Below are positions 786 to 16,008 of a DNA stretch of 27,021 bases, piece after piece. Within the stretch, counting starts at the first letter, position 1, and the number at the start of each line of letters is the position of its first letter. Origin of the DNA: a virus (lineage: Duplodnaviria; Caudoviricetes); the IMG/VR virus record IMGVR_UViG_3300020533_000018, positions 1-27,021 of that record. One strand, written 5' to 3'. The notes under the pieces were generated by a model. The model did no database searches and had not been told where the DNA came from. It worked only from the letters and a program-made list of their open reading frames with translations. Made by a program: the position numbers and the translations under genes.

Positions 786-1228
786 TAACCTCAAGTATAG
801 GAACTCAAATAATTCAAATACCAACTTCATGGCATGATGTGCCATTTGAAAGATTTATTAACTGGATGGATTGCGAAACAGCATTGGAACAAGTTAGTTG
901 TTTACTCGATGTTTCAAAAGACCAATTAGAGCGACTCAATAGCGAATCTTTAGCTTCGATTATGTTAGCTACTTCATTCATGAGTGAATTGCCCGATGCT
1001 TATGTAGCTGAAGAAAATAAAGTCGATATTGGAAAAGAATCCTATGGTAAAGTTGAAGTTGCAAAGGCTCATTTAATTGCAGCGGAAAAACCATTTAAAG
1101 CAATGATACCTATACTAAAAGTATATACGGATGTGGACTATTCAAAGCTACCAACTACCATTTCATATCCTTTGGCTGCTTTTTTTTTGAACAGTTATCA
1201 CGATTTTTTGACAAGTACAAGCGATTAA
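782..1228 (+). CDS. Putative tail assembly chaperone, short (G-like) form
   Basis: 148 aa ORF with ATGA-type overlap to the terL end region. It has an IPTSWHDV motif and a T9 slippery run near the 3' end (1180-1188). Function is inferred from the G/GT-type frameshift architecture. Confidence 0.6.
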   Translation: MITSSIGTQIIQIPTSWHDVPFERFINWMDCETALEQVSCLLDVSKDQLERLNSESLASIMLATSFMSELPDAYVAEENKVDIGKESYGKVEVAKAHLIAAEKPFKAMIPILKVYTDVDYSKLPTTISYPLAAFFLNSYHDFLTSTSD

Positions 1229-10826: not shown

Positions 10827-11822
10827 ATGAACGCAGTTACATCATTACCCGAAAACAACTCGATAGCATACGAGCTATTTTATGCACCGCTTTTGAATGA
10901 CCCAAAAGTAAACGCACTTCCTTTTAATGTTCACATTGGTAAAATTGGAAAAGAATTGTATTTCGATTCTATTTTCACAGCTAATCCAACTTTGAAAGAG
11001 GCTTGTGGATGGGAATACCAAGAAGGAACTCCAATTACTAAAAAAGCACTTTCACCAGTTGAAATTGAACTTTCTTTTCAACAGTGTTATACTGACTTCG
11101 TTAAGTCTGTATTTGGTGACAAACTTCCTGACGGTTGGAGAAAAGGCGAACTTTATCCTGAATTGATTTCTCGAATAGTTGAAAAGCAATCAAACTCTCT
11201 TAACAATGGTTTGTTACTTAGAACATTCTTAGCATCTTCAGGCAACGCAACTCCATTTCTTTCAGGCGCTAATGGAGTTTATGCATCACTTTTGGCGGGT
11301 GTTTCTGCAAATGATGGTACAGTTGATGCGGGAAGTATTTCTGATAATGATTTGCTACCAGCAAACATCGAAGCTACAATGTTTAAAATCTACGATGCAC
11401 AAACAGATGAATTGTTGCAAATCCCTGATGAGCAAAAAGTATTAGTTGTAACTCGTACAGTAGCAAAAGCATGGAAGCGTTATTTGCAAACTCAAACAGG
11501 GTTGACTTCTATAATCCAAACTGATTACATCACTAAAGGAATCAACGAACTTTCTTACAACGGAATACCTTTCTATGTAGTTGATTTTGTAGACAGAGGA
11601 TTGAAATTGTATGATACTACAGGTTCACCTGCATCAACAGTAAGTCCAAACAGAGTTATTCTTACAATCGGTGCAAACCATGATATTATGTTGGATGGAA
11701 CAGGATTCGAAATGATTGAGCCGTTCTATGATAGAAAAGACGATATTGTTTACAGCCCTGCATCTGCAATGGTTGACTATGTATACCGTTTTGGTTTCTA
11801 TAACGTAATCGCAGGATTCTAA
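10827..11822 (+). CDS. Major capsid protein, 331 aa (start corrected from 10734)
   Basis: Position after the protease/scaffold gene, size, strong leader, ACGW and QQC motifs, LSYNGIP, and a downstream hairpin. Confidence 0.8.
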   Translation: MNAVTSLPENNSIAYELFYAPLLNDPKVNALPFNVHIGKIGKELYFDSIFTANPTLKEACGWEYQEGTPITKKALSPVEIELSFQQCYTDFVKSVFGDKLPDGWRKGELYPELISRIVEKQSNSLNNGLLLRTFLASSGNATPFLSGANGVYASLLAGVSANDGTVDAGSISDNDLLPANIEATMFKIYDAQTDELLQIPDEQKVLVVTRTVAKAWKRYLQTQTGLTSIIQTDYITKGINELSYNGIPFYVVDFVDRGLKLYDTTGSPASTVSPNRVILTIGANHDIMLDGTGFEMIEPFYDRKDDIVYSPASAMVDYVYRFGFYNVIAGF

Positions 11823-12501: not shown

Positions 12502-12819
12502 ATGGTAACTATTCAATTCTTAGAAAAGGTTTATGAAGACGTTGTTAGTAAGTCCTATTATGACGTTCCAATTACACATTTAGCATTTTATTATAAAGAA
12601 ATTTATAGTAAAGAATTAAACACTAAGTGCAGCAGTTGCTTAATAGATGCCCATTTGTCAATAAAAAAATATTATCGTGAAAATATCGGTAAATTTGATG
12701 TCGAAAATGCTGAATACGAAAAGCATAAAAAATATAAATTAAAATTAGCACTAATTGAGTTCCAAAAATCAGAACACTTTGAGATTTGCGAATGGATAAA
12801 AAACAGAATCAATGGTTAA
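12502..12819 (+). CDS. Hypothetical protein with CxxC motif, 105 aa (start corrected from 12478)
   Basis: KCSSCLIDA motif and a C-terminal UVR-like helix pair (EHFEICEWIKNRI). The upstream GTG lies inside the terminator. Confidence 0.7.
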   Translation: MVTIQFLEKVYEDVVSKSYYDVPITHLAFYYKEIYSKELNTKCSSCLIDAHLSIKKYYRENIGKFDVENAEYEKHKKYKLKLALIEFQKSEHFEICEWIKNRING

Positions 12820-13450
12820 GACAATAGTAACACGCTCGGCAAATGAAAAATTATACACGCTTGCTAAAGGACTTTGGCAAAGCGATAATAATTTTATTCA
12901 GTGTAAGCAGTTTCAAGGATATAACGGTGCTTTAGATTATCTTTTGCATTTGTTTACTCATAACTTTTCAGGCATTATAGTAAATGCAGATGAGGATTTT
13001 TTCATTGTCAATGAATATTTATTAGACAATGTAATAAACACAATGGTAGAAAAGGGTTATGCTTACTGCGGAGTTCCTGACGGGGGTATAATTAGCCACA
13101 GAAATAATTCTGTTTTCAATGTTAATCCTTTTTTCAATGTGTTTAATGTGGATTTGATTAAAACAAAAATAGCTTTATTCGACAATTCAAAACAATATCA
13201 GTACGCAAATAAAGTTGAGAAGAATGGAAACTTAAACGAACCATTTGCAGGATTCTTATACTGGCTGTATGATAATTTCTTGGGTGCTAATTTCACCGAT
13301 ATAGAAAGCACAGATGGGGTTAGTACAATAATTAAGATTAACGACAGACCGATGGGCATACATTCATGGTATAGCAGAGAATATGGCAAAGATGTAGCGC
13401 AAACTGAAAGAATAGACAGGTGTTATGAATGGGCATTAATTAACCGATGA
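12812..13450 (+). CDS. Putative GT-A fold glycosyltransferase
   Basis: IIVNADEDFFI (DxD after a hydrophobic strand), YAYCGVPDGG and late HSWYSR, adjacent to two other GTs. Confidence 0.65.
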   Translation: MVKTIVTRSANEKLYTLAKGLWQSDNNFIQCKQFQGYNGALDYLLHLFTHNFSGIIVNADEDFFIVNEYLLDNVINTMVEKGYAYCGVPDGGIISHRNNSVFNVNPFFNVFNVDLIKTKIALFDNSKQYQYANKVEKNGNLNEPFAGFLYWLYDNFLGANFTDIESTDGVSTIIKINDRPMGIHSWYSREYGKDVAQTERIDRCYEWALINR

Positions 13451-14055
13451 AAATTATCATACCATATAGGAACAGAGAATCGCATTTAAAGCGGTTTGTA
13501 GAGCATTACAAAGGCTTTGATATATTGGTAGTAGAACAAGCCAACAGAAAGCTATTTAATAGGGGAAAACTGTTTAATGTGGGTTTTAATGAAACAAAAG
13601 ATAATCAAGTTTGTTTTCATGATGTGGATTTGTTAGCTCATAATTTAGACCATTACTCAAAACCGATAAAAGGGGCTTATCACTTTTCAGGCTTATGTGA
13701 GCAATTTAATTATAAAGTACCTTATGAAACTTGCTTTGGTGGAGTTACTGCTTTTGATTCAGATTCATTTTTAAAATGCAACGGATTCAGCAATGATTTT
13801 TGGGGTTGGGGTGGTGAAGATGATGACTTATTCAATAGAACTATTTTAGCAGTAATAGAAACTAAGTTTGAGCAACATAGATACTTTTCTTTAGCACACG
13901 AAAAACAGCCTATTACAGACCAATATAAAGTAAATAAACACTTAGTGTTAGCAACAGGACAAACATGGCTAAAAAGCGGTTTAAATAGCATGAATTATGA
14001 AATATTGAAAAGAGATACTATATTTGGAGTTGAAAGAATTTTAGTAAACATTTAA
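13447..14055 (+). CDS. GT7-like (beta-1,4-galactosyltransferase family) glycosyltransferase
   Basis: Full motif set: IIIPYRNR, FNRGKLFNVG, FHDVDL, FGGV and NGFSNDFWGWGGEDDD. Confidence 0.93.
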   Translation: MKIIIPYRNRESHLKRFVEHYKGFDILVVEQANRKLFNRGKLFNVGFNETKDNQVCFHDVDLLAHNLDHYSKPIKGAYHFSGLCEQFNYKVPYETCFGGVTAFDSDSFLKCNGFSNDFWGWGGEDDDLFNRTILAVIETKFEQHRYFSLAHEKQPITDQYKVNKHLVLATGQTWLKSGLNSMNYEILKRDTIFGVERILVNI

Positions 14056-14063
14056 TTAACTAT

Positions 14064-14387
14064 ATGAATTTTTCAAAGTACAAACTAAAAGACGGTATTG
14101 GCGAACTTGTTTTTAGAGATGGTAATAGGACTATTATCACTATTAATGCTGATAATATCACAGATGAAAAGGTAGAAATTGCCAAACTCAATAATAGAGG
14201 GCATTGTTTTGTTGAATTAAGCGCAATCAAAAAAAAAAGCAATCCGTTAAATATCCAGTCGCTGGAGTCGTTATCAACCTTGAACGAAGTGCCGACAGGC
14301 GAAAATCTTTCTTTGCCAGCGCAGCCAAACAAGAGGGATGTTTTGGTTACGAAAAAGAAAGCGGGCAGACCACCGAAATCGAAATAA
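14064..14387 (+). CDS. Small protein, 107 aa, with basic AT-hook-like tail; N-terminal partner of the frameshifted GT25
   Basis: ORF contains the A10 run at 14229-14238 and ends KKKAGRPPKSK. Confidence 0.7.
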   Translation: MNFSKYKLKDGIGELVFRDGNRTIITINADNITDEKVEIAKLNNRGHCFVELSAIKKKSNPLNIQSLESLSTLNEVPTGENLSLPAQPNKRDVLVTKKKAGRPPKSK

Positions 14388-14881
14388 TACAAGCCGTTGA
14401 CGGCAAAGAGATTAAAAGCAAAATAGCAGGCGTTACTGATAATGAGTACGCTTGTATTCAATCGCATTTAAAGGCTTTAAAATATGCAAAGAAACAAGGC
14501 TTTGAGTGTGTTGCTATCTTTGAAGATGACATACTTTTTACAGATACTTTTAGTAAAGATTTTCAGCTTTACTTATCGGAACTTCCATATAATTTCCATA
14601 TCCTTTATTTAGGCGGTTCGTTTGGTAGACCTCCGCAATATTATGACAAGTTTTTCACCAAACAAGTCTACACATGGGGCGCATTTGCTTACGTTGTGCA
14701 TAAGAGAGCATATAATAAATTAATTAATTTATTAAGTAAGGCTAACAAAATAGTTGATGCTATGTATATTGACTACCAAAAACAATATCTTTGCATTAAG
14801 CCGAATAAAAAATTGGTGATACATCCACAAGGTGTTTCAACTATTAAAGAAAAGTTTGTAAACTATCAGAATATTGTATGA
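14216..14881 (+). CDS. GT25-family glycosyltransferase domain with no canonical start; predicted as a -1 fusion from ATG 14064 (about 272 aa)
   Basis: The frame is open from 14216 (after TGA 14213) to 14881 and reads GVVINLERSADRR...IQAVDGK...EYACIQSHLKAL...VAIFEDDILF...ILYLGG...GAFAYVV. The ORF track caught only the last 61 aa. The stop overlaps the portal ATG. Confidence 0.9.
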   Translation: MKRNQKKKQSVKYPVAGVVINLERSADRRKSFFASAAKQEGCFGYEKESGQTTEIEIIQAVDGKEIKSKIAGVTDNEYACIQSHLKALKYAKKQGFECVAIFEDDILFTDTFSKDFQLYLSELPYNFHILYLGGSFGRPPQYYDKFFTKQVYTWGAFAYVVHKRAYNKLINLLSKANKIVDAMYIDYQKQYLCIKPNKKLVIHPQGVSTIKEKFVNYQNIV

Positions 14882-16008
14882 GTAAATTCAAAAAAACATC
14901 AAAAGTACATTTTAGGAATATACTCCCTACAACTTTCGAGAACAAAGCATTAGGCTATCATAAATTTGGGTGGAATGATAACTTGCCTTTAGAGATAATC
15001 GACATTATAAACAATTCAGGAACGGCAAAAAAAGCAGCTAAAAAATATGCAGAGTACATAGAGTCCGATGGATTCGTAAGTGAACAAGCATCTTTTTTTA
15101 AAGTGAATGAAAAAGAAACGGCTGATAAATTACTTTCAAAATCTGCTTTATCTTTTGCTTATATGGATTGTGCGGTGTTTCATATTTCAAGATTAGGCAA
15201 TGGTAGAGTTGGAAAAGTTACATTAATGCCGTTCCAAAAGATTAGAAAGTCTTTAGATGGGAACTGGATGTATAATCCGACTATTGGACTTGAGAAATTA
15301 GATAAAAATGCATGGATTAAGTTGCAAGATTTTCAGGGCGAAGTAGCAAGTTTTGAGGCTATGACTAAAAACATCACAGATTTTAATTCTAATGGCGAAA
15401 TTTATTATGTGTTTGACGGCAATCCTTTTGATTCAGATGTTTATGCAATACCTGATTTTTTAGCGAGTATTGAAGATGTAAAGACTTCGTCCGAACTTTC
15501 TAAAATGGATTATGAAGCGGTTTTAAATGGTTTTAATTTAGGTGGTGTTATGACTTTCTTTGGCGTTGATGACAACGAAAAAGGCGAAGACGGATTAACG
15601 GATAGGCAACGAATAGAGGGCGAAATGGTGCAGTTCACAGGCATGAAAAAAAACAAAGACGGGTTAACTTCACGTTTTGCGGTATTGGTGAACTTTGCTG
15701 AAATGGCGGAGCAAGCTCCAATATTTTCAGGCAATGACCCAAAACCAATTTTAGAAGCAAGTAATTCAAAAAGAGATATAATAGAGAGAGCCGTTTGTAG
15801 ACTTTGGGGCGTGCATCCAGTATTATTAGGATATGCAGAGGCGGCTGTTTTAGGCAATGATAACGCTATTAAGCAGGCAATGGCAATGCTTAGGCAAACA
15901 GTTAATCCAGTTCAAAGATTAATTACACAAGCGTTTAAAAATATGTTTGGCGGTCAAATAGATTGGACTGTTTCTGAATTTGGTATAACTAAAGAGATTG
16001 TAAAATGA
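14878..16008 (+). CDS. Portal protein
   Basis: 376 aa with KFGWNDNLP, YAIPDF and WGVHPVLLG..VLG...QTVNPVQ motifs resembling HK97-type portals. Confidence 0.8.
   Translation: MSKFKKTSKVHFRNILPTTFENKALGYHKFGWNDNLPLEIIDIINNSGTAKKAAKKYAEYIESDGFVSEQASFFKVNEKETADKLLSKSALSFAYMDCAVFHISRLGNGRVGKVTLMPFQKIRKSLDGNWMYNPTIGLEKLDKNAWIKLQDFQGEVASFEAMTKNITDFNSNGEIYYVFDGNPFDSDVYAIPDFLASIEDVKTSSELSKMDYEAVLNGFNLGGVMTFFGVDDNEKGEDGLTDRQRIEGEMVQFTGMKKNKDGLTSRFAVLVNFAEMAEQAPIFSGNDPKPILEASNSKRDIIERAVCRLWGVHPVLLGYAEAAVLGNDNAIKQAMAMLRQTVNPVQRLITQAFKNMFGGQIDWTVSEFGITKEIVK

Follow-up and report, generated by a model that had tools for sequence, protein, structure and literature searches.

Recoding that gives two proteins from one gene is already known as a class from Thermus thermophilus dnaX, Citrobacter rodentium tssM, Shigella spa13 and lambda G/GT. 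The first three have in common with the locus described here a homopolymer of at least nine bases (A9 in dnaX, A11 in tssM) and two protein variants with a common N-terminus, and the relevant passages of the literature describe the ratio of the tssM variants as mattering for function (PMC4256274; for the class also PMC1088944 and PMC5009743). The lambda gpG/gpGT pair is similar in being a phage -1 shift in which a shared N-terminal part receives, in a minority of products, an extension at a set ratio, as described in part of PMC5009743. Among the joined genes of the SEA-PHAGES collection, 2397 of 2476 are tail assembly chaperones (PMC10885494), and annotated phage recoding is generally regarded as ribosomal. 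Mycobacteriophages Che8 and Rita likewise carry several glycosyltransferase genes per genome, and capsid glycosylation is reported for them in the corresponding part of PMC11256854.

The locus described here was found in a stretch of 27,021 nucleotides of uncultivated phage DNA (IMG/VR record IMGVR_UViG_3300020533_000018), which is referred to as a whole as the window. The window is a virion module with genes for the terminase large subunit, tape measure, Clp-type head protease, a GT7 glycosyltransferase, portal and endolysin as well as recombination genes, and features whose window coordinates are joined by two dots below lie on the plus strand. Within it, the gene for a small phage protein appears to be linked, by a conserved run of 9-10 A residues, to a GT25 glycosyltransferase frame that lacks a start codon and lies at -1.

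The A run and the start-less GT25 frame

The zero-frame ORF (14064..14387) encodes 107 aa with a predicted folded N-terminal domain, a linker and a predicted basic tail of the form KKxGRPxKSK, which reads KKKAGRPPKSK at the C-terminal end. The GT25 frame (14216..14881) lies at -1 relative to this ORF, opens after a TGA at 14213-14215 and runs for 221 codons, and its first ATG, GTG or TTG is a GTG at 14696, codon 161, past the EDD motif. Entry would be at the A10 run at 14229..14238, longer than any other run of A or T in the window, where a -1 shift would give a fusion of 272 aa with the junction SAIKKK/KQSVKYPVAG. The small ORF, the A10 run, the start-less frame from 14216 and the length of the predicted fusion had all been given in an initial annotation of the sequence, and all were confirmed. 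The frame resembles the GT25 family (PF01755; beta-1,4-galactosyltransferase 8xlz, COLGALT1) in its above-cut-off profile match (61.1 bits for PF01755 against a gathering cut-off of 24), its EDD motif, with FEDD invariant in 17/17 aligned GT25 sequences, and a predicted GT-A fold (pLDDT 73, pTM 0.77), for which the best Foldseek match, at an E-value of 1.7e-9 and a TM of ~0.6, was to beta-1,4-galactosyltransferase.

Scans with a GT25 alignment yielded 74 viral, 80 metagenome and 39 genome loci, of which the 54 with at least 52% identity and a 5' region were analyzed together with the window; outside this set stand three close loci, L108, L109 and L175, whose contigs begin inside the glycosyltransferase, and 136 matches that are distant or short. 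With seven duplicate records removed, 48 distinct loci were left; contig ends truncate L048 and L105, the latter perhaps a repeat of L040. Every one of the 48 has a zero-frame ORF of 105-119 aa, a run of nine (32 loci) or ten (16 loci) A residues, a GT25 frame at -1 and an extensive overlap; A7, A8 or A11 occurs at the site in none, and none is in the fused in-frame state. This layout spans 10 clades, between whose representatives identity is 33-62% for the ORF and 47-78% for the glycosyltransferase. Relative to the zero frame, the run occupies register 0 in 4 loci, register 1 in 37 and register 2 in 7, indicating that it is the DNA run that is preserved, with differing residues on either side.

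Other coding sequence from the 10 clade representatives (48,675 nt) contains 13 A7 and 5 A8 but no A run of nine or more, and Lys-Lys tracts are written with at least nine A residues in 0 of 81 cases elsewhere compared to 48 of 48 at the site. The other runs of at least nine in these 82,956 nt number four, two being chaperone-type T9 runs and two lying just upstream of capsid genes. Non-coding A9 runs immediately ahead of the presumed capsid start occur at L009:284 and L050:558. An INL-motif search at the DNA level, blind to the A run, returned 63 matches, comprising 38 known loci and 25 non-glycosyltransferase sequences, none of them a new locus. The layout in 48/48 loci supports the programmed -1 shift put forward in the initial annotation, and we hold with high confidence that programmed recoding at the A run is real.

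The position of stop codons in the GT frame provides additional detail on how it is entered. A GT-frame stop lies within 5 nt of the A run in 30 of the 48 loci and overlaps the first A of the run in 21, so near that the frame can be entered only at or past the run. No ATG, GTG or TTG precedes the INL motif in 47 of the 48 loci, the exception being an in-frame TTG upstream of the run in L008. A pattern of P-[IV]-x-x-hydrophobic across the five or six GT-frame residues ahead of INL is present in 11/11 representatives, while its zero-frame reading varies, and this conservation in the GT frame points to translation from the A run. It is very improbable that GT25 is instead started independently at a near-cognate codon, either the ATT at 14216 or the ATC of INL, with the A run incidental. 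The ATC is present in 48/48 loci, a GGAG lies just upstream in the clades of the window and L009, L008 has its TTG, and one database protein (P0023) begins MFINL; however, the zero-frame Ser codon also fixes this ATC, beginning there would lose most of the predicted first strand, the conserved GT-frame residues lie before it, 21 loci have a stop overlapping the run, and the invariant 9-10 A residues would be left unexplained. Initiation at the ATT, which the initial annotation had raised, is not conserved, as this first codon occurs in 3/48 loci, all from the clade of the window. Speaking against entry at the run, P0023 and a second database entry, P0032 (MKKKY), both known at the protein level, have annotated starts close to it. 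Gene callers cut GT25 short at internal starts, so genes of this kind are being missed.

Homopolymers are error-prone in some sequencing methods, and an assembly error or a decaying pseudogene could in principle mimic a split frame. Conservation refutes this reading, to which we give practically no credence: the frame relation is the same in 48/48 loci and in contigs of 7 runs from 7 studies, apart from an eighth run (X3) that may be the source of this DNA, and the glycosyltransferase motifs are intact. The relatives keep the run and both frames and are neither plain fusions nor decayed genes, and the tract length in contigs, a point on which the initial annotation could have failed, also went in its favor. 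Contigs from 8 among 21 listed runs, which mask rare variants, show no indel at the A run; the sole indels in these 8 runs are a compensating pair at 14194-14198, and A9 arises by substitution in three. L043 and L048 are two ends of one contig with A10 and A9 alleles, respectively, which suggests that two strains were co-assembled.

The initial annotation had also listed phase variation, in which replication slippage turns the fusion on in some genomes. A9-A10 tracts can be replication-unstable, according to part of PMC3711429, P0032, a single 151-aa sequence, may stem from a run one base shorter, and contigs hide rare variants. As the main mechanism it did not hold up, with 0/48 loci in the fused state, and we consider it a poor candidate with little chance of being correct. 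A9 and A10 alleles differ from one another by substitution rather than indel, a fusion-length protein is absent among 16 GT25 clusters (121-387 aa), and the longer relatives of the small ORF, in a weak search, show none either. In addition, GT25 is strongly conserved even though its genomic state is always "off", and the same device is used by the essential terminase.

Selection on the overlap and the route into the second frame

The dual-coded stretch (14239..14387) comprises ~50 codons, which encode the zero-frame tail together with the first strand, first helix and an inserted loop of GT25. As the model places strand 1 at residues 15-20, within this overlap, the enzyme needs the dual-coded part. 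Synonymous variation is lowered in both frames: in the GT frame it affects 41/266 columns in the overlap compared to 252/865 outside (Fisher p 5e-6), and in the zero frame 30/245 columns in the tail compared to 91/281 in the N-terminal domain (p 3e-8), each with 6 clades pooled, and because the clades are related by descent and the columns of the alignment depend on one another, these p values overstate the certainty. With codons resampled under fixed GT residues, 2-20% of trials per clade left the zero frame free of stops across the overlap, while in the real sequences it is open in 10/10 clades. Indels in the overlap between clades preserve both frames, and a basic, K/R-rich GR or GP motif occurs near the zero-frame end in 10/10 clades. 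This sequence evidence supports selection on both frames in the overlap, in agreement with the view of the initial annotation that both are functional and that one N-terminal domain is made with two alternative C-termini.

Two further -1 sites were found in the same phages. The first is a T9 run at 1180..1188 in the window, which joins an ORF at 782-1228 to a -1 frame at 1099-1455, a pair (782-1455) that from its layout we take to be tail-assembly-chaperone-like. A T9 run, or T10 in one case, joins this pair by -1 in the window, in L107 and in 4/4 other records searched (L281-L284), which amounts to 6/6 of the clades inspected. The pair follows the terminase rather than lying between tail and tape-measure genes, and in L107, at about 1000-1500, the chaperone-like gene is on the opposite strand beside a GT7 fragment, which suggests an inversion or a chimeric assembly. 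The second is an A9 run that divides the start of the terminase large subunit from its Walker A frame, such that a -1 shift is needed, in 4 of 13 loci (at positions 386-394 in L275, L277 and L280, and in the more distant L292); its place corresponds to about 330 nt ahead of the first base of the window. The terminase is in frame without any run in the other 9 of 13 (L276, L278, L279 and L286-L291), and the gene with and without the run is a natural control.

The explanation that we find best overall, to which we give slightly better than an even chance, is RNA polymerase slippage that yields two products, one of them a capsid-bound glycosyltransferase fusion. Host RNA polymerase would add one A to a fraction of transcripts at the run, and the output would be mostly the 107-aa protein with its basic tail, along with a minority of the 272-aa enzyme fusion, with the slip rate setting the number of copies that bear glycosyltransferase. 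The GT25 fusion would then glycosylate the virion, probably together with the neighboring GT7. The same 9-10-base device would serve two other products, both seemingly of low abundance: the large terminase in some lineages, and the chaperone-like extension.

We infer that the -1 shift happens and that it does so mainly during transcription, and we favor slippage by the host RNA polymerase as the reasonably likely route on the basis of the nine-base floor and the two further 9-10-base sites. The relevant portion of PMC5009743 describes efficient slippage of bacterial RNA polymerase on 9 A or T residues and a hybrid of 9-10 bp, and nine is the common threshold of selection against A/T runs in the part of PMC1088944 that addresses them. 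For ribosomes, PMC4363877 reports cell-free experiments with E. coli components in which sliding was robustly productive on A11 but yielded little on A9 or A10.

Programmed -1 ribosomal frameshifting on A_AAA_AAA, with the mRNA unchanged as in lambda gpG/gpGT, would give the same 272-aa fusion, and the junction peptide, SAIKKKKQSVKYPVAG, is identical from the transcriptional and ribosomal routes. We see it as a possible but less probable source of the shift, and both routes may act. A zero-frame heptamer A_AAA_AAA is present in 48/48 loci, of which 5 additionally contain A_AAA_AAG and 6 contain A_AAA_AAC, the terminase site includes the classic A_AAA_AAG, and phage chaperone sites are described as ribosomal in part of PMC5009743. 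The direction of the shift is -1 at all 48 loci and at both further sites; a constant direction among orthologues is named as a sign of ribosomal frameshifting in section 10 of PMC3711429, and the varying direction taken as a heuristic for transcriptional slippage was not seen. The dual-coded overlap itself fixes the direction, however, so this comparison has little power here. A ribosomal slip would be satisfied by seven A residues in one register, yet fewer than nine are found in no locus, while A7 or A8 occurs 18 times elsewhere, and the T site likewise has a floor of nine. There is no conserved 3' structure (z of -1.8 to +1.5 in 10 clades), and a Shine-Dalgarno-like word lies within 20 nt upstream of the run in only 1/48 loci.

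Some known -1 frameshift sites need no stimulator. The small hairpin at 14254..14266 that the initial annotation had pointed out downstream of the run is indeed predicted to form; as a candidate stimulator it was rejected, being no more stable than shuffled sequences (z -0.93) and absent in other clades.

The shared N-terminal domain and its possible function

A fold is predicted for about residues 1-56 of the small ORF, the N-terminal domain that the two products would share. In the AlphaFold model, pLDDT is 73-85 at residues 1-50 and ~62 in the linker, with everything past the first ~50 residues modeled as low-confidence coil. The ORF matched no Pfam or PHROG family at E <=0.01. For the N-terminal domain, the best Atlas scores were 0.79 and 0.77, the latter being to DUF7302 and a lead only; the best Foldseek match to viral models, at an E-value of 1.5e-3, was an uncharacterized protein, and VIA-align returned no match with Z >=2 among 48,161 chains. 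A profile search of the family against 1.84 billion representatives found 23 proteins at E <=0.001, and the full-length homologues retrieved have, at the protein level, a Lys-Lys tract at the same place. Neither the small ORF nor the presumed capsid protein has a match among 50,697 GenBank phage records, in which GT25 finds only three distant ones at ~29% identity.

A GT7 galactosyltransferase-like gene (13447..14055; PF02709, PF13733) is found at the same position in 8 of 11 listed representatives. An ORF of 212 aa beside it (12812-13450), with a DED motif and no Pfam match, is present in most clades and may encode a third glycosyltransferase, judging from its sequence. Size, and a location following the Clp-type protease gene, are the grounds for presuming that 10827..11822 encodes the major capsid protein. 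Of its seven homologues three hit phrog_1623 "virion structural protein", at a best E of 1.4e-7, and sequence comparison gives it no solved or cultured relative. Complex prediction for the N-terminal domain with this protein scored 0.54 compared to 0.00 for the best control, a verdict of "weak support", with at least 75% contact agreement between runs and a partner pLDDT of at least 77. Of 157 solved complexes, 116 attained the mark used for such predictions, as did 2 of 215 mismatched pairs; a score no higher than 0.60 lay behind this for just 18 of the 157, and for both mismatches. These models lend weak support to binding of the presumed capsid protein, a positional label, by the shared N-terminal domain, and to that extent to the docking on the virion that the initial annotation had suggested.

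In P0059, P0060, P0047 and L106, the complete small ORF is preceded by another glycosyltransferase or glycosyltransferase-like gene that is fused to it in frame. The P0059 type carries a GT2 domain (Pfam E 1.7e-6), with 8 of 15 listed members at 341 aa; the P0060 type, of which P0047 is a relative, carries a glycosyltransferase-like domain (E of 0.036 only), with 12 of 13 at 364-371 aa; and L106 has an open frame upstream of the small ORF in addition to its A9 run and GT25. These repeated upstream fusions, in a search that sees in-frame cases only, suggest that the small ORF may be a glycosyltransferase-targeting tag. In-frame upstream genes are seen in P0059, P0060, P0047, P0048, P0045 and L106:2-499, and the small ORF retains its own Met. 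A slip in L106 would yield a triple fusion of glycosyltransferase-like domain, N-terminal domain and GT25. In the distant homologue P0058, a CxxC segment weakly similar to the window ORF at 12502-12819 (pairwise E 2e-4) is fused before the N-terminal domain.

The shift could also be real and serve mainly stoichiometry or coupling, keeping GT25 low and letting fewer ribosomes reach the start of the portal gene (14878..16008; PF04860, phrog_11226), with the N-terminal domain a mere carrier and an enzyme whose target might be glycans on the host surface instead of the virion. We consider this a minority possibility, compatible with either slip mechanism. The portal ATG overlaps the GT25 stop (ATGA) in the window, and a GT stop overlaps the start of the next gene in this manner in 45 of the 46 loci where the stop is seen, but ATGA overlaps are common in this genome. 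The terminase site, whose zero-frame product has fewer than 20 residues, is on that account a pure down-tuning device; selection on the zero-frame tail of the small ORF and the repeated fusion of other glycosyltransferases to the same small protein argue against such a role at the GT25 site. More broadly, we propose only tentatively that in these lake siphophages RNA polymerase slippage is a genome-wide dial for minor virion products, taking in the GT25 fusion with its ~50 dual-coded codons, the tail-chaperone extension and the large terminase, and that the small protein is a capsid-binding glycosyltransferase tag.

The sequencing runs that contain this stretch bear mostly freshwater or lake metagenome labels. 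Two related short contigs occur in Chitinophagales and Spirosomataceae bins and one in an alphaproteobacterial bin, from which a host in the Bacteroidota is a tentative guess. A Bacteroidota promoter box was not enriched in the window (17 found compared to 17.2 expected) and was left out of the host assignment.

Comparison with known systems and significance

A recoded phage glycosyltransferase pair was not found in print, in a search of titles and abstract openings from a collection with few subscription journals. This phage family offers a conserved recoding site that would supply an enzyme, along with a long overlap that appears selected in two frames. It is a direct test case for whether dsDNA phages exploit slippage of the host RNA polymerase, and a possible path by which glycosyltransferases are delivered to the virion.

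Set against the systems described at the outset, the locus differs from each in several respects. Unlike the GT25 family members 8xlz and COLGALT1, the phage enzyme is encoded in a frame without its own start codon, and at the place where the basic tail is read in the other frame it contains an inserted loop whose length varies. Compared to Che8 and Rita, the host group is different, no recoding is mentioned in the portion of PMC11256854 that concerns those phages, and glycosylation of the phage here is a prediction. In contrast to lambda gpG/gpGT, the GT25 pair has a long dual-coded overlap, an enzyme as the extension, a nine-base floor and a run that occurs in three registers. Finally, unlike dnaX, tssM and spa13, the site lies in a phage virion operon, the zero frame continues for ~50 selected codons and a whole enzyme would be added, with slippage as the probable mechanism.
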